This document shows, one piece after another, positions 3,694-28,978 of a DNA stretch of 64,000 bases (positions are counted from its first letter, which is position 1; each line of letters opens with the position of its first letter). The DNA comes from Candidatus Zixiibacteriota bacterium (GTDB taxonomy: Bacteria; Zixibacteria; MSB-5A5; GN15; FEB-12). The DNA lies in contig JACZXB010000004.1 in NCBI GenBank assembly GCA_022571845.1, positions 101,578-165,577 on the forward strand. Reading direction: 5' to 3'. The translations under genes were made by a program, and so were the position numbers. The notes below the pieces were generated by a model. That model saw only the letters and a list, made by a program, of their open reading frames with translations, was not told the DNA's origin and did no database searches.

Positions 3694-6129
3694 CTAGGAT
3701 ATCGGAGACTTGGCTGGTTCTGCTTTAGCTGCCTTGGTTACCACAGTAATTGTCTTGTCCAGTTCTTCTCTTACTGCTCCGGCTAAGGTTGCCAGATCGA
3801 ACGGTTTTTTGATATATTGGCCTACCCCGAGCTTGAGTGCTTGTTCGACTCTTTCATTAGCAGAAAACCCGCTGACAATAATTGCTTTTTGCATAGGCTT
3901 GTGCTCTAACATGGCGCGATAGGAATCTAAGCCGTCTAGTTCCTGTTCCAGAATCATATCAAGTAGCACTAAATCGACTGGCTGAGAGCGTACATAGTTT
4001 ATGGCATCCCGGCCGTCTTTGGCAGTAATAACTTCGTAGCCCAGAGCAGACAGACTGTCTGCTAAAAGAAGGCGCTGTTCTTCAGCATCATCTACTACCA
4101 GTATAGTTTCTGTACCCCCGACTACGTAGGTCTCAGATGGCAGCTCCGGCATGGCTTCGTTTGTTGCCGGGAAAAATAGCTTAAATTCAGTTCCCTTTCC
4201 CAGTTCTGACTGGATATCATAGTAACCTTGATGATCTTTTACGATGGCGTAAACTACCGACAATCCTAAGCCGCTGCCGCTGCGCCCTTGCATTTCTTTG
4301 TTTGAGAAATATGGTTCGAAGATTTTACTCATATCTTCGGGACGTATACCGCAGCCAGTGTCTTTAACGCTCATAACAACATATGCGCCGGCCGCTATAG
4401 TCTTGGTGCCCATCTGCATTCCGTCGGTTTGGAGGGTGAATGTTTTAATCGTCAGTTCTCCCTCCTCCCCCATAGCATCCATGGCGTTGACAATCAGGTT
4501 CATGATGACTTTGGAGAGGTGTGGAGATGATCCTCTGATTGGTGAGAGATCCGGGTCAAATTCTGTCTTGATTGTAATTTTGGGATATCGTCGGGCTAAA
4601 TCTTCAAATCCGGGCGAGTCAAGATATTCTCTAATCATCTCGTTGGAATCCATGGCAACAAGTTTATATCTTCCTCGTCTGGCCATTGTCAAAAGATCCT
4701 GGACTACGCTGGCCGCGTCGCGGGCGGCTCTTTCAATTCGCTTGAGTTGTTTTCTGACCGGGCTGTCCTTTGGAAGTTTTCTCATAATCAGTTCTGGATA
4801 ACCGACCAAAGGTCCCAGTACGTTGTTTAGATCGTGGGCAACACCGCCTGCTAAAAGACCGAGAGATTTCATCCGTTCAGCTTTTTCGAGTTGGCTCTGG
4901 AGTTCTTCATTTTTCCGTTCTTCTTCAACCTCGTGGCGAATGTCTCTCATTATTGTGCTAAGATAAAGAGGTTTACCAGTAATATTGTCCTTAGTCATAA
5001 AAACGCTCGCCTCGCAAAGTATAGGTTCGCCGGTCTTGAAGTCTTTGAGTTCTAACCTACCTCTCCAGATACCGTTTTTGAAAACGGCAGGAAATACAGT
5101 TTCCTCTATTATTTTTAAATGGTCTGCAGTATGAAAATCTTTTATGCGCAGCGTTGATATTTGTATTGTGGGATCTATATTTACGAGCCTGCATCCTGCC
5201 GGATTAACATACAGAGCTTGCCCATCTAAGGTTGCTATCGCAATAAAATCCGGAAAGTGACTTACAATTGTTTGAAGTTTTGAGCGCTCGCCTTCGGCAA
5301 TGAATTTTAACTCTTTCTCCTTCTGCAGAGTCAGCCTCTCTGTCTCCCGTAATCTGGTGATATCACGGAAAACAGATACGCAACCTATAAACGTGCCTCG
5401 CGTGTCTTTCATAGAATCAATTGTGATTTCAATCGGGATTTCATTTCCCGAGTCGTTCATCAGCTTGAAATTTCTTGTTAGTTCGTAATTTTCAAGTTCC
5501 TCCAGTCGCCTGCGAGTTGGGTACTCAAAAGGATTGCCGGTATTTTCGTCTACAAGCTTCAGAACATCCTTTATAGGTATGCCGATGGCATTATCAGCGT
5601 TATAACCAGTCAGCATTTCTGCCGCGGGGTTCATAAAGACGACTTGATTCTGACAGTCCGAAGCGATAACAGCATCTCCGATGCTCCACAGAACAGTTTG
5701 CAGCCAGGTTCGATGCGCCCTTAGTTCCTTTCCCAATTTATGGCGATGAAGGGCGATATCTATTGTAGTCTGAATCTCTATGTCTTCGAAGGGTTTTAAG
5801 AGAAAGGCAAGTGGACCTGCGGATTTTGCGCGTTCAATAGTGGCAGTATCTGAATTTGCAGACAGGAAAACTATGGGGAGATCAAACTCTGTTCTAATGA
5901 GAGAAGCAGTCTCAATACCATCAATATCTCCCTTGATTAGAATATCCATCAGGACGATATCAGGAAGTTCTTCTTTAATCAGGCGTATGGCGTCACGGCC
6001 GTTACTTACAGTAGAAGGTACTTCGTACCCCAACTGCTCCAATCGCTTCTTTATATCTAAAGCTGCAGTTATTTCATCTTCTACTACCAGGATTTTTGGC
6101 TTTGCTTTGTTGTCAAGTTCGAGTTGCAA
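3694..6129 (-). CDS. Hybrid sensor histidine kinase / response regulator (REC-PAS-PAS-HisKA-HATPase-REC)
   Basis: N-terminal receiver (ILVVEDE...DIVLMDI...KP). PAS-like segments. H-box GGVAHDLNNVLGPL. ATPase N/G boxes (NLIVNAMDAM, DTGCGI, GSGLGL). C-terminal receiver (ILVVDD...DLVLLDM...KKP). TTG start. Confidence 0.9.
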   Translation of the reverse strand: MQLELDNKAKPKILVVEDEITAALDIKKRLEQLGYEVPSTVSNGRDAIRLIKEELPDIVLMDILIKGDIDGIETASLIRTEFDLPIVFLSANSDTATIERAKSAGPLAFLLKPFEDIEIQTTIDIALHRHKLGKELRAHRTWLQTVLWSIGDAVIASDCQNQVVFMNPAAEMLTGYNADNAIGIPIKDVLKLVDENTGNPFEYPTRRRLEELENYELTRNFKLMNDSGNEIPIEITIDSMKDTRGTFIGCVSVFRDITRLRETERLTLQKEKELKFIAEGERSKLQTIVSHFPDFIAIATLDGQALYVNPAGCRLVNIDPTIQISTLRIKDFHTADHLKIIEETVFPAVFKNGIWRGRLELKDFKTGEPILCEASVFMTKDNITGKPLYLSTIMRDIRHEVEEERKNEELQSQLEKAERMKSLGLLAGGVAHDLNNVLGPLVGYPELIMRKLPKDSPVRKQLKRIERAARDAASVVQDLLTMARRGRYKLVAMDSNEMIREYLDSPGFEDLARRYPKITIKTEFDPDLSPIRGSSPHLSKVIMNLIVNAMDAMGEEGELTIKTFTLQTDGMQMGTKTIAAGAYVVMSVKDTGCGIRPEDMSKIFEPYFSNKEMQGRSGSGLGLSVVYAIVKDHQGYYDIQSELGKGTEFKLFFPATNEAMPELPSETYVVGGTETILVVDDAEEQRLLLADSLSALGYEVITAKDGRDAINYVRSQPVDLVLLDMILEQELDGLDSYRAMLEHKPMQKAIIVSGFSANERVEQALKLGVGQYIKKPFDLATLAGAVREELDKTITVVTKAAKAEPAKSPIS

Positions 6130-6581: not shown

Positions 6582-6597
6582 TGGCACAGCTACTGCA
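6582..6597 (+). promoter_or_regulatory. Candidate sigma54 (-24/-12) promoter for the pilin-like gene array
   Basis: TGGCAC-agcta-CTGCA compared with the consensus TGGCAC-N5-TTGCW. The GG-N10-GC spacing is exact. It lies about 50 nt upstream of the ATG at 6648, which has an AAGGAG RBS at 6633-6638. Confidence 0.6.
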
Positions 6598-6647
6598 CTT
6601 AGACTTAAGTGGAAACAGTGCAACGCACTCAAAAGGAGCAGATTCTA

Positions 6648-7172
6648 ATGAAAAATATTATTACCAGAGCAGCTGTTGTTCTTCTACTCGCTGTTTTTAT
6701 GGTACCAAGCGCCATAAGCCAGGAAATAGGTATAATTCAGGCCACAGCAACCGTAATCTCCAGTTTAAGCATACTGGGTTCTAATAACTTAGTCTTTGGG
6801 TCAGTCACCCCCGGGATAAACAAAATTGTTCCCAGAACTTCAGCCGGATTTGCCGGCGAATGGTCGATTACAGGAACAAGTCTTTCAGAACTCTCTTTGA
6901 CTCTTACCCTGCCGACTGTTCTTGACCATACTTCGGCAGCCGCTACCATGCCGATCAGTTTTAGCAGTACCGACGCTGCCATAAGTGACGGCACTGGCAG
7001 CCAATCAGCCCCCAATGCAGTAGTCGACCCCAACGGCCCTTCGGTTTTCAGATTAGGAGCAGGCGGTCTAATGTATGTTTGGTTAGGCGGAACAGTTCAA
7101 CCGTCAATAGCACAAAGCGGCGGGGATTATGCCTCGAATGTAACTTTGACAATTGCTTATACCGGCAATTAA
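6648..7172 (+). CDS. Secreted pilin-like subunit A (DUF4402 / spore-coat-protein-U-like fold candidate)
   Basis: AAGGAG RBS 9 nt upstream. Signal peptide MKNIITRAAVVLLLAVFMVPSAIS. N-terminal alternating strand ATATVISSLSI, then NLVFGSV, and C-terminal strand NVTLTIAYTGN shared with its paralogs. Confidence 0.75.
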   Translation: MKNIITRAAVVLLLAVFMVPSAISQEIGIIQATATVISSLSILGSNNLVFGSVTPGINKIVPRTSAGFAGEWSITGTSLSELSLTLTLPTVLDHTSAAATMPISFSSTDAAISDGTGSQSAPNAVVDPNGPSVFRLGAGGLMYVWLGGTVQPSIAQSGGDYASNVTLTIAYTGN

Positions 7173-7205
7173 TATCCGAAAAGTGAGAGGGAGGGCCTGC
7201 CCTTA

Positions 7206-7233
7206 TTGACAAATTTACGTTTTTGAGTATGTT
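7206..7233 (+). promoter_or_regulatory. Possible sigma70-type promoter (TTGACA-16 nt-TATGTT)
   Basis: Hexamers were read directly from the sequence upstream of the ORF at 7269. The promoter consensus for this lineage is unknown. Confidence 0.25.
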
Positions 7234-7268
7234 GTTGATGTACTTGTCAATTTACATCAACGGCAGAA

Positions 7269-7700
7269 ATGAAACGATTATACTATTGTATTCTAATATT
7301 CGGATTATTCTACGGCGGAATTAAATCTGCATATGCGGAGCCGTCTGTAAACCTTTCTAACTCTGCCGATATTCAGGTTAGCGCAACAGTAATCAATCCA
7401 GTCGGATTCGTCGCTCGGATATCTGAAAAACAAGCTCAACTAACTGGAAAAGCAATTGAATTTACTTCAAGCCGTAAAATTTCTGTTCTAACTAGAGGAA
7501 ATACTCTTCTGGAAATTGAAAACGGTCAGAGAAAATTCTTTTTAATCTCATCTGAAGATTTTGGCCACTCTTCTTTTGATAATAATCTGCTCAGGTCTAA
7601 TATTACGCCATTGATATTAGTGATACCGGCGGAATTGTTCAGCAGGTCAATAACCGATTCTTCGCACTATCTGATTACACTAATTACAATCTCAGATTAG
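7269..7700 (+). CDS. Divergent secreted subunit-like protein (possible minor, tip or terminator subunit)
   Basis: Signal peptide MKRLYYCILIFGLFYGGIKSAYA. ADIQVSATVINPVG resembles the N-terminal strand of its neighbours. The C-terminal alternating strand YLITLITISD replaces LTVAYTG. Confidence 0.55.
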   Translation: MKRLYYCILIFGLFYGGIKSAYAEPSVNLSNSADIQVSATVINPVGFVARISEKQAQLTGKAIEFTSSRKISVLTRGNTLLEIENGQRKFFLISSEDFGHSSFDNNLLRSNITPLILVIPAELFSRSITDSSHYLITLITISD

Positions 7701-7718
7701 ATTATATGCAATTTGATG

Positions 7719-7747
7719 TTGACTCAAGTAGAGCCACCGAATAAACT
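7719..7747 (+). promoter_or_regulatory. Possible sigma70-type promoter (TTGACT-17 nt-TAAACT)
   Basis: Hexamers were read directly from the sequence upstream of the gene at 7775. Confidence 0.25.
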
Positions 7748-7774
7748 TAAGTCTTGTTAACTATGGAGATTTCC

Positions 7775-8239
7775 ATGAGGCGTTTGTTCATTGGTGTCAC
7801 TTTATTCTTTCTGATAGCTGCCAGCAGCGCGGCACAGACCATTACTGTCAATAATAATTTAGTGTTTGGCGATATGTTTCCGGGGGTCCCCAATACTATT
7901 TCCAAATATACGGCAGGAGCTGCAGCTGAATTTCATGTGTCCGGCACTAATGGGGCTGAAATTTCAATACAATTTACACTTCCAACTAAACTGACAAAAA
8001 TTGGAGTTAGCATACAGCTGATTTTTTTTGATACCGATTGCGCAATTGATCACCGCCCGAATCCCGATCAATCTTCGCCCCTTTTTGATAATCTGGACCC
8101 CTGGTCAACTTTGCTATATCGATTGGGTGTTCAAGGACTAACTATCTACCTGGGCGGTACTGCTGTCCCGAGAATAGTACAGCCACCCGGTGCCTATACC
8201 GCAGATATTACTTTAACGGTAGCTTATACGGGCGCATGA
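7775..8239 (+). CDS. Secreted pilin-like subunit B (short N-terminus subtype)
   Basis: GGAG lies 6 nt before the ATG at 7775. Signal peptide ...LIAASSAAQ. The mature protein starts directly at TITVNNNLVFG and lacks the ATATV strand. The C-terminus is ITLTVAYTGA. It is the same length as, and clearly paralogous to, the next gene. Confidence 0.75.
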   Translation: MRRLFIGVTLFFLIAASSAAQTITVNNNLVFGDMFPGVPNTISKYTAGAAAEFHVSGTNGAEISIQFTLPTKLTKIGVSIQLIFFDTDCAIDHRPNPDQSSPLFDNLDPWSTLLYRLGVQGLTIYLGGTAVPRIVQPPGAYTADITLTVAYTGA

Positions 8240-8240
8240 G

Positions 8241-8705
8241 ATGAAAAATCTACTGGTTATTGCTGCCACTCTTTTACTTGCTACTATTAGCTGCCCTGCT
8301 CAGACAATTACGCTCAATAATGACCTAATATTTGGAAACGTGTTTCCGGGTATTCCCAAGACGATAACTAAGTACTCGGTAGGTTCTGCCGCAGAGTTTC
8401 ATGTGGCCGGTACCAGTGGATCTGAAATTTCAATACAATTCGCCCTGCCAACTTATATGCACGGCAGCGGATTTAATATTGAGATGATTTTCTTCAACAC
8501 TGATTGTTCAATTGATACCTTAGCAAGCCCCAGCCAAACTTCTCCTTTATTTGACAATTTAAATCCCTGGACAACATTAGTCTACAGGCTGGGTTCAGCA
8601 GGATTAACCCTCTGGCTGGGTGGTACGGCCATTCCCAAAGCAGCACAGCCACCCGGTTCTTACACTGCTACTATTGTATTAACAGTAGCCTATACTGGTG
8701 CCTGA
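8241..8705 (+). CDS. Secreted pilin-like subunit C (short N-terminus subtype)
   Basis: Starts 1 nt after the stop of subunit B. Signal peptide MKNLLVIAATLLLATISCPAQ. Collinear with B (FHVAGTSGSEISIQF, FFNTDCSID, LTVAYTGA). Confidence 0.75.
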   Translation: MKNLLVIAATLLLATISCPAQTITLNNDLIFGNVFPGIPKTITKYSVGSAAEFHVAGTSGSEISIQFALPTYMHGSGFNIEMIFFNTDCSIDTLASPSQTSPLFDNLNPWTTLVYRLGSAGLTLWLGGTAIPKAAQPPGSYTATIVLTVAYTGA

Positions 8706-8728
8706 GCAAAGCAGATGAATTTGCTCAG
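8702..8728 (+). terminator. Stem-loop overlapping the stop codon of subunit C (weak terminator or attenuator)
   Basis: CTGAGCAAA-9 nt-TTTGCTCAG forms a 9-bp stem. It is AT-rich and has no following U-run. Confidence 0.25.
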
Positions 8729-8919
8729 ATGTTGGACATTATCTCCTGACATTGATAAATATAGCTCAAATTTCATAAACTCATTTTCAGAGTAGTCGAA
8801 AATAAAGCTCATAGGCCGGGATTATCCCTTATTTGCAGCCAATTAAACCCCGGTCAGTAATAATCAATTGCGATATAATATTAAATATCGGGTAATAGCA
8901 ACCGGAAAGGGAAACCGAG

Positions 8920-9480
8920 ATGAATAAAAAGGGAGTAGAAAGGAAGTTCGCAGCAGTAGTAGTCGCAGCAATAATCTGCTTCAGTTTAAGTGTGAATAGA
9001 GTTCAGGCACAGGATGTTGCCACAGGAGCAGCCACCGCTACAGTATTGGCTGCATTATCAGTCATCGCCGCGCAGAATCTGATATTTGGAAATATCTACC
9101 AGGGTGTTGCCTCTACAGTTGCTAACAATATTAACGCCAGCTCGGGAATTTTTAACATACTCGGACAGGGCAGCGCCGGAATTTCTATCAGTTTTGTTCT
9201 TCCACAATTCATAGCTTTGGCCGACGGCTCTGACAGGATGACGATCGGTTTCAGCTCAACAGATGCAACAGTCGATTCCAATAATACTACGCCAGCTACA
9301 GTAGTTGCAGGTGATGGCTGGATTAACACGAATCCCAATAATCTGCCGGCCGCTACTGTCATTGGCGCCGCCGGCCAGACAAATGTCTATTTGGGCGGAA
9401 GAGTCTACCCTTCAGTTGACCAGGCTGCTGGAGCATATAGCGGAGATATTATTCTAACCGTAGCCTATAATGGAACCTGA
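8920..9480 (+). CDS. Secreted pilin-like subunit D (long subtype)
   Basis: Signal peptide ending VQAQ. QDVATGAATATVLAALSV strand, NLIFGNIYQG, ALADGSDRMTIGFSSTDA, and C-terminus IILTVAYNGT. Confidence 0.75.
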   Translation: MNKKGVERKFAAVVVAAIICFSLSVNRVQAQDVATGAATATVLAALSVIAAQNLIFGNIYQGVASTVANNINASSGIFNILGQGSAGISISFVLPQFIALADGSDRMTIGFSSTDATVDSNNTTPATVVAGDGWINTNPNNLPAATVIGAAGQTNVYLGGRVYPSVDQAAGAYSGDIILTVAYNGT

Positions 9481-9505
9481 TCTCAAGTAATACTCGAATT
9501 CGAAC

Positions 9506-9540
9506 GCCCCAATAGCTAAGCTGTTGGGGCACTTTTGTTT
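9506..9540 (+). terminator. Rho-independent terminator after subunit D
   Basis: GCCCCAA-11 nt-TTGGGGC stem followed by ACTTTTGTTT. Confidence 0.6.
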
Positions 9541-9728
9541 ACCCTCAAGAATGCGCTTATGCTCATCGTAATGGCGCTTATTCTCAAACTATTCAAAATT
9601 TAATCAAAACAGTGCTTGAAGCTGTTAAGTATTTGAGCTCTTGGGCGATAATCATACAAAAGAGCCAATAGGGGCTGCTTTTAACTATTCGAAAAGTAAA
9701 CATGAATATCAAGAATTATACAGATTCA

Positions 9729-9822
9729 TTTGTAACATCGCTGAGATTGCACCAATGGCTGAAAACTACTCTTTTACATATTCCTTTGTAACTTCACAGA
9801 GATTGCACCTATGGCTGAAGAT
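9729..9822 (+). repeat. Two copies of a roughly 37-bp direct repeat, 56 bp apart, at the 5' end of subunit E
   Basis: TTTGTAACATCGCTGAGATTGCACCAATGGCTGAAAA (9729-9765) compared with TTTGTAACTTCACAGAGATTGCACCTATGGCTGAAGA (9785-9821). Each copy carries an ATGGCTGAA. Confidence 0.8.
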
Positions 9823-10345
9823 TTCGCTATTGGTGCTTTCATTTCTAATTGTTATGGCCGCTAGTGGTATGGCACAGGACGTAGCTGTCGGGCAGGCAAC
9901 TGCGACAGTGCTGGCCACTCTGGCAGTTTCATCAACAGCAGCTCTGGCCTTTGGAAATGTATATCAAGGCGTTAGCAGTACCATCGCTAATAACAATGCC
10001 AGCGCCAGCGTCTTTACCATAACCGGAGCTGCCAGTTCGGGAATTATGATATTTATGGCACTTCCCAACTATGTCGCATTGGCTGACGGTAGTGACCGTA
10101 TGACGATCTCGTTCAGTTCGACTGATGCTTCGGTTGATACACTGGGTGGCGGTAACCCGACCACTATGGCAGCAGGCTCCGGTTTTCAGAACATAAATCC
10201 GCATAACTTTCCTGCGGCCGCAGTGATAGGTGCTGGCGGAACGACTAATATTTACCTGGGTGGTAAAGTCTTGCCAACCATTGATCAGACCGCCGGTGCT
10301 TACACAGGTGACATAATTTTGACAGTTGCTTATACAGGGAATTAA
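9755..10345 (+). CDS. Secreted pilin-like subunit E (long subtype); start codon uncertain
   Basis: The mature part, QDVAVGQATATVLATLAV...IILTVAYTGN, is collinear with subunits D and F. The in-frame ATG at 9755 gives an unusually long n-region before the hydrophobic core ISLLVLSFLIVMAASGMA. The track start at 9641 is probably too far upstream. Confidence 0.7.
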   Translation: MAENYSFTYSFVTSQRLHLWLKISLLVLSFLIVMAASGMAQDVAVGQATATVLATLAVSSTAALAFGNVYQGVSSTIANNNASASVFTITGAASSGIMIFMALPNYVALADGSDRMTISFSSTDASVDTLGGGNPTTMAAGSGFQNINPHNFPAAAVIGAGGTTNIYLGGKVLPTIDQTAGAYTGDIILTVAYTGN

Positions 10346-10410
10346 GAAAGTAAAAAGTGAACAAAAATAAGAAACAATTCAACCTTCGAATCCAACTAAG
10401 GAGTAACAAC

Positions 10411-10971
10411 ATGCGATTAAACGTAATGAATCGTTCTGTAAAGATCATTCTGTTCGTTGCACTGGCGGCTGTTTTGGCAGTTGCGCCGGTAGTAAACTCT
10501 CAGGATGTTGCAACAGGTTCAGCTACGGCTACAGTCTTGACTGCTCTTGCCGTAACTTCAACTGCCGCACTTGTTTTTGGTAATGTCTTTCAGGGTGTTT
10601 CCGCGACAATTGCCAACATTAACGCCGCAGCTGGTGTCTATTCCATAACCGGCCAGGCCAGTGCTGTTATTTCAATCTATATGGCATTGCCCGAATTCGT
10701 GGCTTTAGCCGATGGCAGCGACAAGATGACTATTTCATTCAGTTCAACTGATGCCTCAGTTGATACCCTCGGCGGCGGCGTTCCGACCGGTATGGTAGCA
10801 ACCTCCGGTTATCAGAACATCGATCCACACAACTTCCCCGCTGCCTCAAATATAGGTTCGGGTGGAACAACCAGTATTTATCTCGGCGGTAAAATATATC
10901 CGACTATTGACCAGGCAGCCGGCGCTTATACCGGCGATATAGTATTGACAGTCGCCTATACTGGCACCTGA
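10411..10971 (+). CDS. Secreted pilin-like subunit F (long subtype)
   Basis: AAGGAG lies 7 nt before the ATG at 10411. Signal peptide MRLNVMNRSVKIILFVALAAVLAVAPVVNS. Very similar to subunit E throughout. C-terminus IVLTVAYTGT. Confidence 0.8.
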   Translation: MRLNVMNRSVKIILFVALAAVLAVAPVVNSQDVATGSATATVLTALAVTSTAALVFGNVFQGVSATIANINAAAGVYSITGQASAVISIYMALPEFVALADGSDKMTISFSSTDASVDTLGGGVPTGMVATSGYQNIDPHNFPAASNIGSGGTTSIYLGGKIYPTIDQAAGAYTGDIVLTVAYTGT

Positions 10972-11094
10972 AAAAAGTTGTAGATTGTTGAACGACTTGA
11001 AGAGATAATTACTATTGATAATTTGCCGGGGAGTGGCATTGTAGGCTGCTCCCTCTGGCAGTTGAGAGAAAATAGTAAACATTGGAAGGTTACT

Positions 11095-11964
11095 ATGATT
11101 ACAAAATGGCAGAATTTCCGGATTCCAATTAGAGAGCAGCGCCTATACGCAGGTTTGCTTATCGCCCTTATTCTATTAATTGGCAATGTCAAAGCAGGTG
11201 TTCTGGTAGCGCCTACTGTTGTCTTTATGGATGAGCACAAACGAACCGGCCGGATAACTGTTCAGAACCCCTCCGACGAGCCCAGGGAAGTTACCATTCG
11301 CATGAGTTTTGGCCTGCCCACATCTGACAGTCTTGGCAATGTCTTCGTCAACCTTCAGGACTCAGGCATCACCGATATAAAAGCGGCAACCAGCTGGGTC
11401 AAGCCCTTTCCCCGCAAAATGCTGCTTCAACCGGGAGCGACTCAGGTTGTACGGTTTGTGGCCAGGCCTCCCAAGAATCTGGTTGACGGCGAATACTGGG
11501 CGCGGGTTGTGGTTACTTCGCAGGAAGGAATAACCTCTCTGCCCAATCCGACAGGTGAAGGTCAGATATCTACTGTACTCAATATGATTATGCAGACTGC
11601 GATCATGCTGAAATACCGCCAGGGAGATCAGATTGCTCATGTAAAGCTGAACAGCGTAGACGCCTCTCATGAAGACACGCTGGTGAGCGTCATAGTCGAT
11701 TTGTCCAGTACGGGCAATGCTTCATACGTGGGATTAATGCATTGCCGATTGTTTAATGCCGACAAACAGGAGATAGGCTATCGCCGCTTTGACCTGGCGG
11801 TCTATCATGATTTGAAAAGGCGGGTAACTTTTCCTGTTGCGTCCTATAAGAGTGGTTCGCCTTATTCATTTGAACTATACATTACGCCCAACGGCCGCAA
11901 GGATATTGCCGCTGAGTATCTTATAAGAGGAAACGAAATCGAATACTCAACGATTATTCCTTAG
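11095..11964 (+). CDS. Periplasmic PapD-like (Ig-fold) pilus assembly chaperone candidate
   Basis: Signal/anchor LLIALILLIGNVKAG. VLVAPTVVFMDEHKRTGRITVQNPSDEPREVTIRM and FPRKMLLQPGATQVVRFV match the strand pattern of PapD-type chaperone N-domains. A second beta-rich domain follows. It sits between the subunit genes and the usher-like gene. The ATG at 11095 follows GGAAGG. Confidence 0.55.
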   Translation: MITKWQNFRIPIREQRLYAGLLIALILLIGNVKAGVLVAPTVVFMDEHKRTGRITVQNPSDEPREVTIRMSFGLPTSDSLGNVFVNLQDSGITDIKAATSWVKPFPRKMLLQPGATQVVRFVARPPKNLVDGEYWARVVVTSQEGITSLPNPTGEGQISTVLNMIMQTAIMLKYRQGDQIAHVKLNSVDASHEDTLVSVIVDLSSTGNASYVGLMHCRLFNADKQEIGYRRFDLAVYHDLKRRVTFPVASYKSGSPYSFELYITPNGRKDIAAEYLIRGNEIEYSTIIP

Positions 11965-11975
11965 TCCCGTTTCTG

Positions 11976-14573
11976 ATGTGGAAAGACCTGCTTAAGATGT
12001 TGGCCGTAGATGTTAATTCAAAATTTGTAAATAAAACAAGGCTCTGTCTTTTGATATGCTGCGTATTGCTTTTGCAATCGGCAGTTTTTGGACAAAAGGT
12101 AGAGAGGGAAGAAATAGTAGTCTCGTTTGTCAGCCGGGGATTATTTTCTGAAGAATTTTTTGTCCAGTATGACGGCGAGCACATTTATCTGCCACTGCTC
12201 GAGGTATTGAGCGCTCTGGACATGTTTGGGTCATTCGACCGTGCTAACCAGCGAATCGAAGGTTTTCTGTTTACACCGTCTGACAAATTTACGTTTGACT
12301 ATAAAAAGCTCGAAGTTTCCTACGGCGGCAAAAAGCATGCAGTCAGCTATAATCAATATATGGTCGAAAGCACAGACCTGTTTTTGAGAGTTGACCAGTT
12401 TAAGCGCCTCTTTGGACTCCCTTTTGAATTCGATTTTTCTGAATTGAGAGTATCAATGCCTTCCGACAAGAGATTACCATTATATCAAAAATTGATGCGT
12501 AAACGCCTTCACGAAAAGCTAAAACGAAAAGACGATGCAATCGGGCCGGTTTATACGCTGCCTCTTAAACGCAGCTGGTTTTCAGGCGGCGCTTTGGACT
12601 GGCAGATTTCTAACAGTCTGGTAGGCAGACAGAATCACTTTTACGGATTTGATCTGGGTTCATCGTTAATGGGAGGCGATCTGGTTTTTTCCGGTGGCGG
12701 CAGCAAGAGCAGGGGTTATGACCCCGAGCAGATGCGCTACCGCTGGAACTATGCTTTCCAGGATAAAAGCTACATAACCAAAGCCTCTTTAGGAGAAGTT
12801 TACACTGTTGGTGCCTTGGGCAGAAATCTTAATGGAGCTATGGTCACCAACCGGCCGTTAGTTCAGCGCCGCTATTACCAGACTATCAGTGTCAGCGACG
12901 TTATTGGCCCCAACTGGGAAGTAGAGCTGTATATAGACAATGAGTTAGTGGATGTTATGACCACAGACTTAAGAGGCGAATATAATTTCAATATCGATTT
13001 AGTATACGGTAATACGCTGGTAACTTTGAAAATGTACGGACCTAATGGTGAAATCAAAAGTGAAGACAAATATTTTCTGGTTCCATTTAACCTCATCCCT
13101 GAAGGTGAATTTGAGTATACCATTGCAGCCGGTGAAACTGAGGTACTAAGAGAAAACCGCCGCTATGCGCAGGCACAGGCGTTTTATGGAGTAAACTCAT
13201 GGCTAACAGCCGGTCTTGGGCTGGAGCAGCCGCTAGGAGCTTTGGGCGATGAAAGTATCAAGTTTGCCGGTGAGCTCGGCGTTCAAGTGGGCGGTGGACT
13301 AACGTTTAGTACAGCCATTGCGCCCAACCGGTCAATGGGTATTAACGGCGCTTTTAGCCGGTCGTCTTCCTTCTCTTTAGCAGCAGGATATACTAAGTAC
13401 TGGCCGGATGATTTTTTTAATCCTTTTAATCGCGAGTACCGGGCGATTTTTTCAGCCAGCGCACCTTTTAAGATTAAAAATACTCGTATAGGGATAAGAT
13501 ACTACGTTTCAGTAGACAAATTTCCTTCGGTGCTGGCAACCAATATGAATTATGGAATGTCCGGCTCAGCTGGGCCGGTCAATCTAAATTTTCTGGGAAA
13601 ATTCAGCCAGTCTAAATATGAATCAAGAACAGTTAATGAAATTATTAACCAGATTTTTGCTACTGTTCATATATATAAATGGATTCGCCCGCAGTTCAGA
13701 GTTGCCTACAACCATAGTAAGTCGATGCTTGACAAATATGGCATATATATCGGACGCCGGGTCTTTAAGACCTCACAACTTTCTGTTTCCTACGAACGCA
13801 ATGAAGCGATCAAAACTGACCAAATTCAACTGACTTTTCACCTCTTTACCGGTTTCTTGACTTCCACCACCCGGGGCATTTCTACCAATAGAGGCTCCAC
13901 AGTTAGCCAGGTTCAGCGCGGCTCTATTCTTTACGATGGCAATACCCATTCAATTCGTTTTGATCGCCGGAATAATGTCGGTTATGCCTCGGCAGTTGTA
14001 CGTCCGTACTTAGACCGAAATTATAATTCTCAAATGGACCCGGGCGAAGAGTGGCTGGATGGTATCCGCCCCAAGATGAAAGGTCCGTCGGGAATTCCCT
14101 CGGGGAAAAACAATCTGCATTATTTTAACAGACTTCGTCCTTATGACAATTACCTAATTCAGATAGACCAGTACAGTCTTGATGACCCGACCCTAAGAGC
14201 AGTGCATGAAAATTATATGGTAACAGTCGGACCAAATGTGGTCACGGCGATTGATGTAGCGGTGGTTGTAACCAGTGATATTTCGGGGACTGTCAACCGT
14301 TTGTTGCCGCAAGGCGGCGAAGTTGGTGTTGGCGGGATAAAAATTAGAATTGTCAATATTACAACAGATGAACTGACTGAGATATCGACTTTTAATGACG
14401 GCGAGTATTATTATCTGGGACTTACTCCCGGTTCCTACCGGGCCTATATAGACCCCAAACAGCTTGAGCAGTACGGCTACGAGAGCGAACCCGGCGGCAT
14501 AGATTTCATTATCGAACCGACCGAAGGCGGTACTTCGATAGAAGATATCAGTTTTAAGATCGTTTCGAAGTAG
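11976..14573 (+). CDS. Usher-like outer-membrane assembly platform with a C-terminal CarboxypepD_reg-like beta-sandwich
   Basis: 865 aa with a signal peptide (...LCLLICCVLLLQSAVFG). The segment WEVELYIDNELVDVMTTDLRGEYNFNIDLVYGNTLVTLKMYGPNGEIKSED resembles the usher 'vdvyvNg...G.f.i' middle-domain pattern. Long beta-rich, Tyr/Gly/Ser-rich stretches are consistent with a barrel. The C-terminus GIKIRIVNITTDELTEISTFNDGEYYYLGLTPGSYRAYID is a CarboxypepD_reg-type motif. Confidence 0.55.
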   Translation: MWKDLLKMLAVDVNSKFVNKTRLCLLICCVLLLQSAVFGQKVEREEIVVSFVSRGLFSEEFFVQYDGEHIYLPLLEVLSALDMFGSFDRANQRIEGFLFTPSDKFTFDYKKLEVSYGGKKHAVSYNQYMVESTDLFLRVDQFKRLFGLPFEFDFSELRVSMPSDKRLPLYQKLMRKRLHEKLKRKDDAIGPVYTLPLKRSWFSGGALDWQISNSLVGRQNHFYGFDLGSSLMGGDLVFSGGGSKSRGYDPEQMRYRWNYAFQDKSYITKASLGEVYTVGALGRNLNGAMVTNRPLVQRRYYQTISVSDVIGPNWEVELYIDNELVDVMTTDLRGEYNFNIDLVYGNTLVTLKMYGPNGEIKSEDKYFLVPFNLIPEGEFEYTIAAGETEVLRENRRYAQAQAFYGVNSWLTAGLGLEQPLGALGDESIKFAGELGVQVGGGLTFSTAIAPNRSMGINGAFSRSSSFSLAAGYTKYWPDDFFNPFNREYRAIFSASAPFKIKNTRIGIRYYVSVDKFPSVLATNMNYGMSGSAGPVNLNFLGKFSQSKYESRTVNEIINQIFATVHIYKWIRPQFRVAYNHSKSMLDKYGIYIGRRVFKTSQLSVSYERNEAIKTDQIQLTFHLFTGFLTSTTRGISTNRGSTVSQVQRGSILYDGNTHSIRFDRRNNVGYASAVVRPYLDRNYNSQMDPGEEWLDGIRPKMKGPSGIPSGKNNLHYFNRLRPYDNYLIQIDQYSLDDPTLRAVHENYMVTVGPNVVTAIDVAVVVTSDISGTVNRLLPQGGEVGVGGIKIRIVNITTDELTEISTFNDGEYYYLGLTPGSYRAYIDPKQLEQYGYESEPGGIDFIIEPTEGGTSIEDISFKIVSK

Positions 14574-14599: not shown

Positions 14600-14617
14600 G
14601 GCTCGCCGTGGCGAGCC
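14600..14617 (+). terminator. GC-rich hairpin downstream of the usher-like gene
   Basis: GGCTCGC-cgtg-GCGAGCC forms a 7-bp stem. There is no U-run. Confidence 0.3.
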
Positions 14618-14908: not shown

Positions 14909-15493
14909 ATGGCTGAAAACACAACTTTCAGGTTCTTGGGCGGCCTCCTGCGCAATCCTAAGCATATCGGCGCCATAGCTCCCAGTTCAGAAAAACTGGC
15001 TATGGCCATGGTTGAAGGCCTGGAGCTTCATCCGGGCGAACTGATTATTGAACTGGGGCCGGGAACCGGAGCCTTTACAAAACAGATCAGCAAAATTATT
15101 CCTGAGGGCGCCTGCTATCTGGGAATCGAGCGAGACCCAAAATTTGTGCGGCTTCTGCAGAAACGCTACCCCCAATTGACATTCGTTAACGGCAACGCCG
15201 AAAATCTATGCGACCTTCGTAACGGTTACAGCAATATGAAGACGAGAGTGATAATTTCCGGTCTGCCTTTTTCAATTCAAGTTGGCGAGGTTCGCGATAA
15301 TATCATAGACGGGATTGACAAGCTGATGACCCCCGGAGCAGTCTTTCGGACTATGCAGTATTTGCACACTTATCCGATTCCTTCGGCGACAAGGTTCCGG
15401 CGGCGCATGACCGAAGTATTCGGTGATTTTCACAGAAGCAAAGTTATAATTCCCAATCTACCCCCCGCCTTTGTGCTCACCTGGCAGCGATAA
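14909..15493 (+). CDS. Class I SAM-dependent methyltransferase (COG3963 / phospholipid N-methyltransferase-like)
   Basis: N-terminus FLGGLLRNPKHIGAIAPSSEKLAMAM and SAM motif I ELGPGTGAFT. Confidence 0.65.
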   Translation: MAENTTFRFLGGLLRNPKHIGAIAPSSEKLAMAMVEGLELHPGELIIELGPGTGAFTKQISKIIPEGACYLGIERDPKFVRLLQKRYPQLTFVNGNAENLCDLRNGYSNMKTRVIISGLPFSIQVGEVRDNIIDGIDKLMTPGAVFRTMQYLHTYPIPSATRFRRRMTEVFGDFHRSKVIIPNLPPAFVLTWQR

Positions 15494-15604: not shown

Positions 15605-18055
15605 TTAAGACTCTACGGAAGTAATGCTTTCTTTAGTCCCTTGCATGCCCGCTTCGGTAATCTTCAAAAAATCCGCTAACTTTGAAAGCGAGTGAAAAAG
15701 GGTGTAGTTGTTCCAGACTTTGCGCATGCCGTTTTGGATGTACGGCAGTCTCTCTTTTGGGTTATTCAAGAAATGCTCAAACATTTCTTTATACTCTTGA
15801 GGGGAATTAGCAACCGCCATTTCGTTGGCATCGAACAGTTCTTTCATAGCGGCCGGGTTATCCACCAGTTCAAAACCGCCGCAGGCTGGAATTACACAGG
15901 TCCGTTCGTTGACTTCGTCAAATCTTTCATACTGCGCTTCAATATGAAAGTTCGGAAGAACTTTGGCAAAGTTGTACAATAGTGCTGAGTCTGAAACAGA
16001 AAGTTCGCCGGCGCCCCGGTTCCAGCCTTTACCAGCCAGGATGCCGCGGTAGTTATTGACAATCGGCTGCAAATATTGAGTTCCTTGTTTAGCCTTTAAT
16101 TGTGAATTTGTCCCGACAAAAAAGAAATCCCATACCTGTCTGGCCGGACGCATGTAATGCTGATTTGGATTAATACCAAACGGAATCGAAATCAGCGGCT
16201 TTTTTAATGAATCGAATCTTTTGTCACCAGCCGGATTCAGATGAAAGGTAATCAAAAAATCACACATGTCGTAGCTGTCTTGTAGATTTACGATATGTCC
16301 GATTTTAAATTCGTGCTGCTGCTGATAATTTGCTATGAATTCCGAATCCAGCTTTTCGATATAAGCCGGGTCGCCGACTGTGATAAAAACTGTCGGCTGA
16401 AATGATTGAAATGTTTTTTTAGTATTGTCATTCCAGTCAAGTAGCGACGTTTGAACGCCCATGATATTGAGCGTTTCGACCCAGCTATCAAACAGATATT
16501 TTATGGCGCCGTTATTTGGGCGGTGCAGCAAAATTCTTTGGCCGCAAGCCTGGTAGCGGTTTTCAAATTTTTGAAATGCTCGATCTCGCAAAGAATGGTT
16601 TTCTTTCAGTAGCTCCAGACGGGATTCATCGACACAATGTTTAGTAGTCCAGCGGGCACTCCGGATTATGGCTGCTGACTGGTTACCGTCTAATACTATA
16701 TGGGGAGTCATGGCGCCATACAGTTCCAGCACATTATTGTGAGCGTCTGTCATATGAGGGTCAGCGTGCAGAGCCTTATCGAAGGCCCCGGCAGATTCTG
16801 TTAGCTTTCCTTGTGCATATAGCAGTACGCCGGCATTGTTCAATGTCTGCGGGTCATTGGGGCCAAGTTCTAGTGCCTCAAGACAAAAGTTTTCTGCATC
16901 TGCGACAGCACCCGACGAAAAACTAGTTTCGCTTAATCCTCTTAGCGCCCCGATTGAAACGGGACATATTCTTAGCGCCTTGCGAAATTTTGATTGAGCT
17001 TTAAAAAAATTGCCGAGCCTCAATAACTTTTGCCCTTCTACAACTTCGCTGTCAGACTCAAGCCTTATTAGCAGCTCTGAAATTTCATCTTTAAATCTTG
17101 GCGAATATTTCATAGACCGCTCTGCAAATTCTCGAATCGCCTTGTCAAAGCGCCAGAGATTTTGTTCTATCTCTTCATCGGAGTTTTGATTTTTAAAGAG
17201 TTCCGGGATATGGAAATCTTTCTTGGCCGTGTATAGATTGTCCGCTAATAGAAAATATTTGGCTGCGTTGTAATCGCCGGTTCCAGATTTAAATTGCTGC
17301 AGCATCGGATGCTTTAGATATATTCTGTCGTCGATATGCTCTGCGAAGTACTTCTTTATTGCCAGAATTCGCTCAACCTGCCAGACAATATTGCAGCTAT
17401 TGTTGTCGCCGTGTACGCGCCAGTTGAGTCCCACGCCTGAGATAATTTTGACAGACGGCCGACACAGCATGCCACAAATTGTAAACCAGATATCAGCGCC
17501 TCCCCCATATTCAAACGGTTTGAATTTAAGCTTATGATCATGCAGGAATTTGGTTCTAAAAAGTCCGTTATGCGGCATGGCAACTGAACAGTATTTCCAG
17601 GACCGAAAGAGGGCGCTATCCGGGTCAGTCTTCCAGTCGTCGTAGTGCCACTGTAGAAGTTGGTCGCCGTCTTTGTTTACTATGTTTAAGCTACCGCAAA
17701 TCCAGTCAAGAGTTTCGTTTTTGCGACATTCGTTAATCATTCGCTCAAAATAATCAGTTTCAATAAAGTCATCGCTGTCCAGCCGATAGAAATATTCTCC
17801 TCTGGCGTTTGCTATCGCTTTATTTATCGTTTCGTGTACCGCCTTAGAGCCGTGGTTGCGTTCGTGCCGGATCAAATTAATTTTGTCGCCGTAAGATTTG
17901 AGAATATCAATTGTGCTGTCGGTGGAACAGTCATCATATACGAATACGTCGAATTGTTGGTAGGTTTGATTTAAAACCGAGTCGATAGCTTGGCGGACGT
18001 AGTCTTCATGATTATAACTGGTGATGCAAACAGTAATTGTTGGTTCGAAACTCAT
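15605..18055 (-). CDS. Multidomain glycosyltransferase: N-terminal GT2, central TPR repeats, C-terminal CgeB/GT1-like domain
   Basis: GT2 signature ITVCITSYNHEDYVRQAIDSVLNQTY...VFVYDDCSTDST...DSDD. TPR-like LELGPNDPQTLNNAGVLLYAQGKLTESAGAFDKALHADP. The C-terminal roughly 300 aa resembles spore-maturation CgeB-type glycosyltransferase domains. Confidence 0.7.
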   Translation of the reverse strand: MSFEPTITVCITSYNHEDYVRQAIDSVLNQTYQQFDVFVYDDCSTDSTIDILKSYGDKINLIRHERNHGSKAVHETINKAIANARGEYFYRLDSDDFIETDYFERMINECRKNETLDWICGSLNIVNKDGDQLLQWHYDDWKTDPDSALFRSWKYCSVAMPHNGLFRTKFLHDHKLKFKPFEYGGGADIWFTICGMLCRPSVKIISGVGLNWRVHGDNNSCNIVWQVERILAIKKYFAEHIDDRIYLKHPMLQQFKSGTGDYNAAKYFLLADNLYTAKKDFHIPELFKNQNSDEEIEQNLWRFDKAIREFAERSMKYSPRFKDEISELLIRLESDSEVVEGQKLLRLGNFFKAQSKFRKALRICPVSIGALRGLSETSFSSGAVADAENFCLEALELGPNDPQTLNNAGVLLYAQGKLTESAGAFDKALHADPHMTDAHNNVLELYGAMTPHIVLDGNQSAAIIRSARWTTKHCVDESRLELLKENHSLRDRAFQKFENRYQACGQRILLHRPNNGAIKYLFDSWVETLNIMGVQTSLLDWNDNTKKTFQSFQPTVFITVGDPAYIEKLDSEFIANYQQQHEFKIGHIVNLQDSYDMCDFLITFHLNPAGDKRFDSLKKPLISIPFGINPNQHYMRPARQVWDFFFVGTNSQLKAKQGTQYLQPIVNNYRGILAGKGWNRGAGELSVSDSALLYNFAKVLPNFHIEAQYERFDEVNERTCVIPACGGFELVDNPAAMKELFDANEMAVANSPQEYKEMFEHFLNNPKERLPYIQNGMRKVWNNYTLFHSLSKLADFLKITEAGMQGTKESITSVES

Positions 18056-18063
18056 AGACTGTT

Positions 18064-18927
18064 TTATACGTGGTCAGCCGCTGACTTATGAATCTCAGCA
18101 TAGGTAGGCTGGTACGCGTGATTATCAGGAACATCTATCGTGACCATACTTGAGCAGCCAATCAAAACATTGTGGCCGACTTTGATTTTATCTCTTAGCA
18201 TTGCTTGGGGAGCAATCCAGCAGTCCCTGCCGATTTGTACCCCGCCTGAAATTGAAACTCCTGACATGATTCTGGTGCCGCTGGCGATTGTTACGTTGTG
18301 CGCTATCTGAACCATGTTATCGATACGGATATTGCTTTCTATTATGGTGTTGCCAAAAGTGCCGCAGTCTATGACCGAGCCGGGACCAATCTCAACGTTG
18401 TTACCTATGGTGACTCCGCCAAAGTGCGGCATCGAAACGAATTCCCCATTTGAGTCGCGGGAAAAACCAAAGCCGGCCTCGCCTATTACTGCGTTGGCGC
18501 CTATTATGCAATTGTCGCCTATAGTCACATTGGCATAGACAATCGCGCCGGCCTGAATAAGACTGTTTCTGGGCTGACTGCCATCGGGATTGCGCGCCCA
18601 TCTCTCTCTTGGTTGCAGCAGTTTGCCGTATTTTCTACAAGCGATTTGTGAGAAAAGTAGTTGCGGGTTGTCTGATAAGACAATCGTTTTGCCTGTTATT
18701 TTTTTAATTTCAATTTCGCATTTTAGATCAACATGGCAGACAATGACAGCTGCCGGGCTTTGGGCGATTGTATCAATATTCCCGCCGTTATAGTAAGCAA
18801 ACACGCCACTATCTGAAATTGAGCCGGGACGATTAGGAAACTCAATTAGAGAAAACATATTTTCGTTATCCGCGGTATCAATCATAAGAGCTTGTGCATC
18901 TGGATTTGTTATTATTCTACCAGACAT
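18064..18927 (-). CDS. LpxD-like hexapeptide-repeat (left-handed beta-helix) N-acyl/acetyltransferase
   Basis: Repeated [LIV]-G-x-x-x-x hexapeptides (VTIGDNCIIGANAVIGEAGFGF, VTIGNNVEIGPGSVID, VTIASGTRIMSGVSISGGVQIGRDCWI). Confidence 0.7.
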   Translation of the reverse strand: MSGRIITNPDAQALMIDTADNENMFSLIEFPNRPGSISDSGVFAYYNGGNIDTIAQSPAAVIVCHVDLKCEIEIKKITGKTIVLSDNPQLLFSQIACRKYGKLLQPRERWARNPDGSQPRNSLIQAGAIVYANVTIGDNCIIGANAVIGEAGFGFSRDSNGEFVSMPHFGGVTIGNNVEIGPGSVIDCGTFGNTIIESNIRIDNMVQIAHNVTIASGTRIMSGVSISGGVQIGRDCWIAPQAMLRDKIKVGHNVLIGCSSMVTIDVPDNHAYQPTYAEIHKSAADHV

Positions 18928-20066
18928 GTTTCAAGTTCCGCTGTTTGTGGTTCTTGGTAAATTTTCGGAGTTATCAGGTCCATCAATGTTTCTGCAACTT
19001 TTCGTGCTTCCTCTTTTGTCATAGCCGCATACAATGGCAGAGCAAGACCCTGCTTTTGAAGTACGGTCGCAGCAGGACAAGTATCTGATGGTATTGCAAA
19101 AAGCGGCAGTTGGTGCGCTGCCGGAGACCCTATGTTTGTTTCTATTCTGCTCTCTGCCATTCCAGATATAATATTATCGCGGTCAATTTCTTTGTCTAAG
19201 AGAACCATTAGCGTTTGAATAGCTATTTCGAAATTTTCCGAATGTTCTGAATTTGACAGGTACTCAGGAAGAGTTATGCTATCTTGCCCGTCGAGTATTT
19301 CCGAATATGTTTCTATGATATATTTTCTTTTTGAGAGAATAGTTTTTAGTTTACTCAATTGCACCAGACCGATCGCAGCCTGAATATCTGTCATGCGGTA
19401 ATTTAATCCGGCTGATTTGAGATTTCCGTGATTTCGCAGCGCACGGCATTTTTCAGCGAACTCGGTGCTGTCTGTTATGATAGCGCCACCCTCACCGGTA
19501 GTAATAATTTTACGCGGATGGAAACTGAATATTCCTGCTAAGCCAAAAGTACCTGCCTGCCGCCCGTTTATTTTTGTGCCAAGCGCACAGGCGGAGTCTT
19601 CGATAACTTTTAGGTTATAGTTAGTTGCAATTTCTAACACTTTGCTAATGTCACAAGGCGCGCCAAACTGATGAACGGGCAAGATTGCTTTTACTCTGAT
19701 GCCTTCTGACTTTGACTGTTGAATTATGTTTTCAAGCAGATCAACATTTAAATTGTAATCAGATGTTTTTGAATCAACGAATATTGGTTTTGCTCCAAGC
19801 AGATGTGCGATATTGGCAGCCGATGGCCAGGCGAAACTTGGGATAATAATTCCATCACCCTGCCGAATGCCTAAGGCCATAAAGCAGATGTGAAGAGCTG
19901 CTGTGCCTGAGGTTACTGCTATACAATATTTCGAACCACACTGCTTGGCGATGCTTGTCTCAAAATCGGAAACTTGTTTTCCCTGCATTATCCAGCCTGA
20001 GTCTAAGACTCTGCTGACGGCTTCTTTTTCTTTTTCGTCAAAAAATGGTTTAGCTAAAGATATCAT
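18912..20066 (-). CDS. DegT/DnrJ/EryC1/StrS-family PLP-dependent sugar aminotransferase
   Basis: FDEKEKEAVSRVLDSGWIMQG; the PLP-lysine context SFHPRKIITTGEGGAI; NLRMTDIQAAIGLVQL-type motif. Confidence 0.85.
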   Translation of the reverse strand: MISLAKPFFDEKEKEAVSRVLDSGWIMQGKQVSDFETSIAKQCGSKYCIAVTSGTAALHICFMALGIRQGDGIIIPSFAWPSAANIAHLLGAKPIFVDSKTSDYNLNVDLLENIIQQSKSEGIRVKAILPVHQFGAPCDISKVLEIATNYNLKVIEDSACALGTKINGRQAGTFGLAGIFSFHPRKIITTGEGGAIITDSTEFAEKCRALRNHGNLKSAGLNYRMTDIQAAIGLVQLSKLKTILSKRKYIIETYSEILDGQDSITLPEYLSNSEHSENFEIAIQTLMVLLDKEIDRDNIISGMAESRIETNIGSPAAHQLPLFAIPSDTCPAATVLQKQGLALPLYAAMTKEEARKVAETLMDLITPKIYQEPQTAELETCLVE

Positions 20067-21106: not shown

Positions 21107-21260
21107 AATTATAGTAAAAGCAACGGCTGTGCCGGTACCGGACTGCGTTGCTAAGTGCTTGTTGTATTGAATGTTACAGCTGCAAGGCGTGCGGTTAGAG
21201 TCTTGATTTTAGGCCTTAAATGGAAGGGATTTCCGAGATTATTTGAAAGAATTTCTGACT

Positions 21261-21290
21261 AAAAAAAGTCAGGGCCACAAGGGCCCTGAC
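21261..21290 (-). terminator. Rho-independent terminator of the TonB-dependent receptor gene
   Basis: On the minus strand, GTCAGGGCC-cttgt-GGCCCTGAC is followed by TTTTTTT. Confidence 0.8.
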
Positions 21291-21315
21291 CTACAATTTG
21301 GAAAGGATTTTAGAT

Positions 21316-28888: not shown

Positions 28889-28978
28889 TGGCGGAGAGGC
28901 AGGGATTCGAACCCTGGGAGCCCGCAAAGGCTCAACGGTTTTCGAGACCGCCCCGTTCAACCGCTCCGGCACCTCTCC
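28889..28978 (-). tRNA. tRNA-Ser (anticodon CGA), CCA encoded
   Basis: Manual fold of the reverse complement. Acceptor GGAGAGG/CCTCTCC. Anticodon loop CU-CGA-AA. Long variable arm (TGAGCCTTTGCGGGCTCC). T-arm CAGGG-TTCGAAT-CCCTG. Discriminator G plus CCA. Length 90 nt. Confidence 0.9.

Follow-up and report, generated by a model that had tools for sequence, protein, structure and literature searches.

A probable chaperone-usher operon for a surface fibre, with DUF4402 subunits, in a Zixibacteria genome

Nine plus-strand open reading frames (ORFs) span positions 6609-14573 of the window, the whole 64,000-nucleotide (nt) stretch of contig JACZXB010000004.1 of a Candidatus Zixiibacteriota bacterium that was analysed here and to which all coordinates refer. 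The likely extent of the operon is about 6648-14573. It contains six paralogues of the DUF4402 family in three classes (A; B/C; D/E/F), a small protein X, a periplasmic protein of about 289 amino acids (aa) and an outer-membrane protein of 865 aa. An earlier annotation of the window, the sequence-only reading, had taken these genes for an uncharacterised fibre system of the chaperone-usher (CU) type, whose subunits are DUF4402 proteins and whose host lies outside the Proteobacteria, and this proposal is now supported by the usher model, the pilin fold and the conserved neighbourhood. The locus is probably (about 0.78) a complete operon for CU assembly that builds a surface fibre and belongs to a deep lineage not yet characterised. 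The features of the locus, with the basis of each assignment in brackets (AF2, AlphaFold2), are these:

6648..7172, plus strand: subunit A, DUF4402-type, pilin-like, with extension EIGIIQATATVISSLSIL (alignment; first operon position in other loci too)
7269..7700, plus strand: protein X, small, secreted, 143 aa (positional orthologues between A-type and B-type genes)
7754..8239, plus strand: subunit B, DUF4402, pilin-like, without N-terminal extension (DUF4402 match; likely start ATG 7775)
8241..8705, plus strand: subunit C, paralogue of B, without N-terminal extension (DUF4402 match; alignment)
8920..9480, plus strand: subunit D, DUF4402, pilin-like, with extension DVATGAATATVLAAL (DUF4402 match; alignment)
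9506..9540, plus strand: intrinsic-terminator-like hairpin GCCCCAATAGC-TAA-GCTGTTGGGGC, then ACTTTTGTTT (25 nt past the stop codon of D)
9755..10345, plus strand: subunit E, DUF4402, pilin-like, with extension DVAVGQATATVLATL (alignment; 68% identity to F)
10357..10971, plus strand: subunit F, DUF4402, pilin-like, with extension DVATGSATATVLTAL (DUF4402 match; AF2 model; Foldseek)
11095..11964, plus strand: predicted periplasmic PapD-like chaperone of non-classical type (family profiles; EcpB alignment; ORF open from 11023)
11976..14573, plus strand: predicted outer-membrane usher, 865 aa (AF2 model; Foldseek)

Signal peptides were judged by eye, the marks looked for being a basic N-region, a stretch of hydrophobic residues and a cleavage site of the AxA or AQ type. 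The earliest possible start of gene A is GTG 6609; ATG 6648 is preferred because AAGGAG sits 9 nt upstream of it. A start at 6582, as in the sequence-only reading, is ruled out by the in-frame stop codons behind it, and a protein of 174 aa is likely instead of one of 196 aa. The ORF of gene E is open from 9641, with ATG 9755 or TTG 9803 as likely starts, and gene F likely starts at ATG 10411 or 10426. Antisense ORFs on the minus strand (e.g. 6737-7033, 9096-9362, 9932-10204 and 11362-11670) were attributed to chance, the plus-strand genes being those conserved across loci.

The order of several DUF4402 genes, a gene for about 290 aa and a gene for about 860 aa was detected by script in about 60 loci, and because this identical order recurs in independent loci the nine-gene operon is real and more than chance. 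The distribution scan, in which one genome was taken per species, found 186 loci of the operon type, mostly in Zixibacteria and in other FCB-group assemblies labelled Ignavibacteriales, Calditrichota, Kryptoniota and Bacteroidota. The window is matched at 92-93% identity by two Zixibacteria assemblies. The operon is also present in Proteobacteria (Marinobacter, with Marinobacter sp. X15-166B as a carrier, Polaromonas sp. JS666 plasmid 2, BPRO_RS26580-26565, and Pseudoalteromonas xiamenensis). The neighbourhood that the sequence-only reading proposed to look for in related genomes is kept, and no other secretion system genes lie alongside the array in the loci compared. A sub-variant is seen in six loci of Bacteroidota and Kryptoniota (L079-L084), with ushers of about 1060-1140 aa, chaperones of 273 aa and subunit-like proteins of about 310-330 aa.

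Existing labels for these genes are uneven. Nearly every homologue of the 865-aa protein is a "hypothetical protein" from candidate division Zixibacteria, and the large protein is named "carboxypeptidase-like regulatory domain-containing" in the proteobacterial records at NCBI. The middle protein of Polaromonas is named "fimbria/pilus periplasmic chaperone" there, and JGI labels many chaperone homologues "P pilus assembly chaperone PapD". Automated annotation has thus already labelled some chaperones of the operon type, and the operon is widespread and not peculiar to the window. Literature searches on DUF4402, PF14352 and CU systems in Zixibacteria found no paper, a broader search returned nothing relevant, and an NCBIfam scan of the locus gave nothing useful.

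Subunits were compared with Pfam at E-values up to 1, the gathering threshold of DUF4402 (PF14352) being 25.2 bits. The membership proposed earlier was borne out directly for B (27.4 bits), C (31.1 bits), D (27.1 bits) and F (33.6 bits); A (18.1 bits) and E (18.4 bits) score under the threshold and are clear paralogues by alignment. All six align throughout and share the near-invariant C-terminal beta-strand already noted from the sequence, (I/V)(T/I/V)LT(V/I)AY(T/N)G(N/A/T). The internal motif (N/D)L(V/I)FG that had been ascribed to all six is present in A-D, while E and F read AL(A/V)FG, leaving LxFG as the motif common to all. Pairwise identities agree with the three subtypes A, B/C and D/E/F: B and C are 60% identical, D, E and F 53-68% (E and F 68%), and A is 31-41% identical to the others. 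Apart from the window, the duplication giving B and C is seen only in two loci closely related to it, L005 and L006. The class order was kept in 12 of 12 loci inspected, with an A-type gene, X, a B-type gene and then two or three D-type genes.

The classes differ at the mature N-terminus. A-type subunits carry an extension of the pattern E-x-x-x-IQAxATV..., and D-type subunits one with the consensus QDVAxGxATATV, the ATATV of which we take to resemble the donor strand of Caf1. The B-type mature N-terminus goes directly into the first strand (AQ, cleavage, TITVNNNLVFG), so that precisely the extension is missing, again in 12 of 12 loci inspected. In the AF2 model of subunit F (113-sequence alignment; predicted local distance difference test score, pLDDT, 89.6) the protein is all-beta, the C-terminus being formed by its final strand. 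Residues 33-47, directly after the signal peptide, are coil in this monomer. The extension is nearly invariant over the 113 homologues (Q32, D33, V34, A35, G37, A39, T40, A41, T42). An extension that is conserved yet coil in the monomer is as would be expected of a donor strand folding only in the polymer.

Foldseek matches of the F model in the PDB are mostly CU pilins (CfaB, Caf1, FimA/FimI, PapE, CsuA/B), with a few glycoside-hydrolase chains interspersed; the top matches have a probability of about 1, and target TM-scores are 0.4-0.6. Caf1 is among the best of them, with a target TM-score of 0.56-0.61. CsuA/B is not the best, ranking 21 and 29. Judged from the model, subunit F has a pilin-like fold that ends in its last strand. 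Two weak hhalign alignments are in register, one of the subunit extension and first strand with the N-terminus of EcpA (E 0.017) and one of the subunit C-terminal strand with the C-terminus of FimA.

Modelling of the 865-aa protein gave a confident structure (108-sequence alignment, pLDDT 90.1). Foldseek aligned it with full-length FimD (3rfz_E) at E 5.4e-28 over about 900 columns with a target TM-score of 0.5-0.6, with PapC at E 5e-23 and with isolated usher translocation domains at E 1e-15 to 1e-13; the best barrels other than ushers reached only about 1e-5. Sequence identity to the classical CU systems is in the 10-16% range. The layout and strand count were read from the DSSP string of the AF2 model and comprise the following parts (CTD, C-terminal domain):

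residues ~45-165: N-terminal domain
residues 168-188: conserved basic helix
residues ~200-665: 24-strand barrel (6 strands, plug, 18 strands)
residues ~300-369: plug of 6 strands, between barrel strands 6 and 7
residues ~671-765: CTD1
residues ~767-865: CTD2, SdrD_B/CarboxypepD_reg-like

By this model the 865-aa protein is an usher of canonical FimD/PapC layout, with 24 strands, a plug, an N-terminal domain and two CTDs. The large plugged beta-barrel for which the sequence-only reading asked as a check is thus seen in the model. The non-canonical C-terminus that it had described is not: the last ~60 residues, which match SdrD_B/CarboxypepD_reg in Pfam, occupy the CTD2 position, and a weak alignment (E 0.005) links the C-terminal domains to their EcpC counterparts. 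The basic helix LYQKLMRKRLHEKLKRKDDA (window 12477-12539) joins the N-terminal domain and the barrel; its P168 and R175 are invariant in the 108 homologues, and to our knowledge it has no counterpart in FimD or PapC.

The 289-aa protein lies between subunits and usher. PapD_N is the commonest weak Pfam match among its homologues (79 of 113). The window protein itself matches PapD_N at E 0.009-0.011, under the cut-off, and chaperones of the same operon type exceed the cut-off of 23 bits (Polaromonas 25.3 bits, Pseudoalteromonas 23.2 bits). The family profile, from a family that an exhaustive profile search put at 2308 cluster representatives at 50% identity, matches the Polaromonas protein with 99.1% probability (E 1.5e-18, 217 columns). 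In hhalign comparisons the profile aligned with EcpB over domain 1 at E 2.6e-5 and more weakly with FimC (E 0.018). The PapD-like character assigned earlier is thus upheld by the family members that pass PapD_N and by the EcpB alignment over domain 1, and family-level homology indicates that the protein is a very divergent PapD-like chaperone. A match of the chaperone profile to abrin in the PDB (E 0.013) was taken as chance.

Archaic and alternative chaperones are distinguished by an arginine that anchors the subunit carboxylate (in CsuC, and Arg89 in EcpB; PMC4654587). EcpB Arg89 and the G1 donor residues are defined in the same work, and its residue numbers were confirmed as mature numbering by a check against the EcpB donor residues. 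Arg137 of the window protein aligns with Arg89 and is present in 136 of 139 homologues; Pro106, invariant in 139 of 139, aligns with an EcpB proline. Arg137 is thus a predicted anchor for the carboxylate at the subunit's C-terminus. The A1 strand holds no conserved basic residue across the family, and hence no classical Arg8 equivalent. Residues 158-166 (I158, T160, L162, M164, M166) alternate between hydrophobic and polar across the family, and T160, L162, M164 and M166 coincide with EcpB G1 donor residues in a global alignment; this segment is the predicted G1 donor strand. Domain 2 and the partner residues in it (Tyr, Arg) could not be reliably aligned to EcpB. Four of the 139 homologues, all distant, also match Por_Secre_tail, the C-terminal sorting domain of type IX secretion (best E 2e-4), a domain that one would not expect on a chaperone of the periplasm.

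Protein X is 17-22% identical to all six subunits in pairwise comparisons and has no Pfam or NCBIfam match. Positional orthologues of X were found in 27 loci, between A-type and B-type genes (e.g. L009 4664-5077 and L055 4633-5055). The family keeps a signal peptide, the motif SASIQATATV-x-x-P-x-G and a short C-terminal strand, which reads LITLITISD in the window and is ...ITIIYSEN-like across the orthologues; the middle is hypervariable and almost unalignable between genomes. The N-terminal motif of the window protein, SADIQVSATVINPVG, resembles a subunit extension, and hhalign aligned the family with the subunit profile over the N-terminal 26 columns only, which are the extension (E 3.6e-4). 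X may be an accessory, adaptor or terminator subunit, or have another role.

The terminator-like hairpin (9506-9530) is a strong one; it begins 25 nt past the stop codon of D and has a T tract behind it. Of 55 loci, 28 have a hairpin at the equivalent position, past the subunit gene that is third when counting backwards from the chaperone, and at any other subunit-gene position 0-4 of the 55 have one. Between the hairpin past the first D-type gene and the next gene (window, loci L005-L078) there is usually a gap of about 300 bp. A terminator also follows papA and fimA in classical pilus operons. The arrangement suggests that D is expressed in abundance, with E, F, the chaperone and the usher served by read-through or by a second promoter; of all the subunits D is the foremost candidate for the major one, because the conserved terminator follows its gene.

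Other elements of the non-coding DNA were noted as well. A tandem direct repeat of 56 nt, in two copies 80% identical (9716-9827), extends over the 5' end of gene E. Both copies include a CC(A/T)ATGGCTGAA start region, and L005 and L006 have the repeat too. The repeat may be a start region that was duplicated, or a site where a regulator binds. An invertible switch like fimS was considered, and the intergenic regions gave only short inverted repeats. A GC-rich hairpin GGCTCGCC-ACGG-GGCGAGCC lies at 14600-14617, 27 nt past the usher stop codon, was flagged on the minus strand, and may mark the end of the operon.

From the gene set and the models we infer donor-strand complementation and exchange, the formation of a fibre and an order of subunits in it. 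The seven Sec-exported subunits would reach the periplasm, where the PapD-like chaperone would cap each of them, its G1 strand (~158-166) filling the groove left by the missing seventh strand and Arg137 gripping the conserved subunit C-terminus (...LTVAYTG-x). The complexes would then dock on the usher, with its plugged 24-strand barrel, N-terminal domain and two C-terminal domains. At the usher the extension of the incoming subunit (QDVAxGxATATV) would displace the chaperone strand by donor-strand exchange, and a linear fibre would be extruded through the barrel. Because a subunit without an extension has no strand to donate, although it can accept one, B and C would stand at the distal end and are predicted to be tip or cap subunits. 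The sequence-only reading had pointed out that no adhesin gene follows the usher. None was found: the next gene (14909-15493) is methyltransferase-like, the following one lies on the opposite strand, and no two-domain tip adhesin gene (CsuE-like) follows the usher. The absence is accounted for if the extension-less B/C subunits are, as is probable, the tip.

Several results weigh against the presence of a CU fibre operon. The usher has no match to the Pfam Usher family (PF00577), nor do its Polaromonas and Pseudoalteromonas homologues, and in sequence and family-profile searches of the PDB its sole match was the SdrD_B-like tail, with no usher found. The chaperone has no Pfam PapD_C match, its second domain and the two-domain cleft being read from sequence alone, and neither direct sequence nor family-profile search of the PDB matched it to a chaperone. 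The same two kinds of PDB search found no pilin match for subunit F, whose Foldseek E-values are marginal (1e-3 to 2e-2). Single-sequence hhalign comparisons with FimC, FimD, FimA and EcpA were weak. An open groove in the subunits is a predicted feature, as is the fit of the extension or of the chaperone strand into it, and the operon type is known here from genes and models alone.

The explanation that competes best with the proposed deep lineage is that the locus is simply another archaic (sigma) CU system, like Acinetobacter baumannii Csu, Pseudomonas aeruginosa CupE or Myxococcus Mcu, too divergent for the Pfam models. The gene order of subunits, chaperone and usher resembles that of csu, and several minor subunits are common to both. 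The chaperone fits EcpB better than FimC (E 2.6e-5 and 0.018) and carries the arginine typical of non-classical chaperones; as in the archaic systems, the classical Arg8/Lys112-type anchor is lacking and a near-invariant domain-1 arginine is present instead (PMC4654587). Archaic systems are also reported to be phylogenetically wide (PMC4654587), spread beyond Proteobacteria as is the operon described here. However, no subunit matches SCPU (PF05229), the family of archaic subunits, all Pfam matches being to DUF4402, and the Usher model misses the usher here, in the window and in the proteobacterial homologues alike. CsuA/B is not the best structural match of subunit F, and no CsuE-like two-domain adhesin gene follows the usher, the likely tip being the single-domain B/C encoded upstream; the extra hypervariable protein X also sets the locus apart. 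The "SCPU-like", sigma-clade relationship drawn by the sequence-only reading is therefore not borne out, since only the chaperone shows non-classical affinity, and plain membership of the archaic systems is unlikely.

It is less probable still that the CU-type machinery exports DUF4402 proteins that form a surface coat or matrix and not a pilus, like the Mcu spore coat or the capsule-like Caf1 polyadhesin. The machinery would be the same as for a fibre, Caf1 is among the best structural matches of F, and a surface-polysaccharide cluster adjoins the operon at 15605-21106. Five to seven subunit classes, an extension-less one among them, argue instead for an ordered heteropolymer with a tip; at the level of sequence a thin fibre and a coat cannot be told apart, both being donor-strand polymers. 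A coat as the product is accordingly given a low probability.

A degenerate or repurposed usher-like porin with an Ig-like periplasmic protein, the DUF4402 proteins being secreted or outer-membrane-anchored monomers (binding proteins or adhesins, for instance) that form no polymer, is very improbable. In its favour, the Usher and PapD_C models do not match, the subunit extension is unstructured in the monomer model and X has no recognisable pilin body, but the near-invariance of an extension that is disordered in the monomer, a subunit class missing precisely this extension, an amphipathic chaperone strand at the donor position and an usher that keeps every domain are together hard to explain without donor-strand exchange.

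With a fibre-building CU operon as the preferred explanation, the best sequence-profile link to a known system is to the E. coli common pilus (ECP; EcpA-EcpB-EcpC), a system of the alternative type, through EcpB domain 1 with the proline and Arg89 in register. The EcpC C-terminal-domain and EcpA N-terminus alignments point the same way; all these links are weak. ECP, in contrast, has one major pilin, and its large tip adhesin EcpD and second chaperone EcpE are encoded past the usher; none of these features is present at the window locus. With the classical Fim, Pap and Caf1 systems the locus shares the usher architecture (FimD and PapC being the best matches) and the pilin fold (Caf1, FimA, FimI, PapE). 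It differs from them in the 10-16% identity, the absence of the classical chaperone anchor residues, the lack of a two-domain lectin adhesin and the position of all subunit genes upstream of the chaperone. A CU system from another non-proteobacterial phylum is slr1667/slr1668/slr0019 of Synechocystis, whose secreted subunit is small (~178 aa) and whose chaperone is PapD-like (bioRxiv 10.1101/130278). Its usher, unlike that of the window, is reported to be 30% identical to FimD and is far nearer to the canonical ushers; the usher gene is unlinked, and the proposed role of the system is the modification of type IV pili.

A broader proposal, to which we give slightly less than even odds as a joint claim, is that the DUF4402 operons form a fourth deep CU lineage beside the classical, alternative and archaic ones. 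This lineage would be common in the FCB group (Zixibacteria, Ignavibacteria-like assemblies, Kryptoniota, Calditrichota, Bacteroidota) and would occur here and there in Proteobacteria; current family models would fail to see its ushers and pilins; its fibre cap would be a single-domain extension-less subunit and not a two-domain adhesin; and it would carry a hypervariable accessory subunit, X, that keeps only the donor strand.

If the fibre assignment is correct, the CU pathway reaches the FCB group through a lineage that current censuses of CU systems would miss where they start from the Usher family model, and a function would be at hand for Pfam DUF4402 and for many proteins now named "carboxypeptidase regulatory-like domain" or "hypothetical". 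The operon would also offer a point of comparison for the diversification of donor-strand systems, combining a non-classical anchor, a canonical usher, a single-domain cap and small proteins reduced to the donor strand. A surface fibre would be predicted for uncultured Zixibacteria, likely relevant to attachment in sediments. The prediction is directly testable in the cultivable carriers Polaromonas sp. JS666, Marinobacter and Pseudoalteromonas xiamenensis.

The surroundings of the operon were also surveyed. Upstream and divergent from it lies a hybrid sensor kinase gene (3694-6129, minus strand) with two receiver domains and PAS, HisKA and HATPase domains; in the distant locus L002, response-regulator and PAS-kinase genes adjoin the operon too. 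Downstream, the minus strand of 15605-24171 encodes a GT2/TPR glycosyltransferase, a hexapeptide transferase, a DegT-type aminotransferase and an epimerase/dehydratase, a set that suggests the synthesis of surface sugars. After the sugar genes, in the same interval, comes a TonB-dependent receptor whose N-terminal domain is CarboxypepD_reg; it confirms a diderm host. No Rfam RNA family was found in the operon locus; the only Rfam match of the whole window is a tRNA gene at 28892-28978 on the minus strand.

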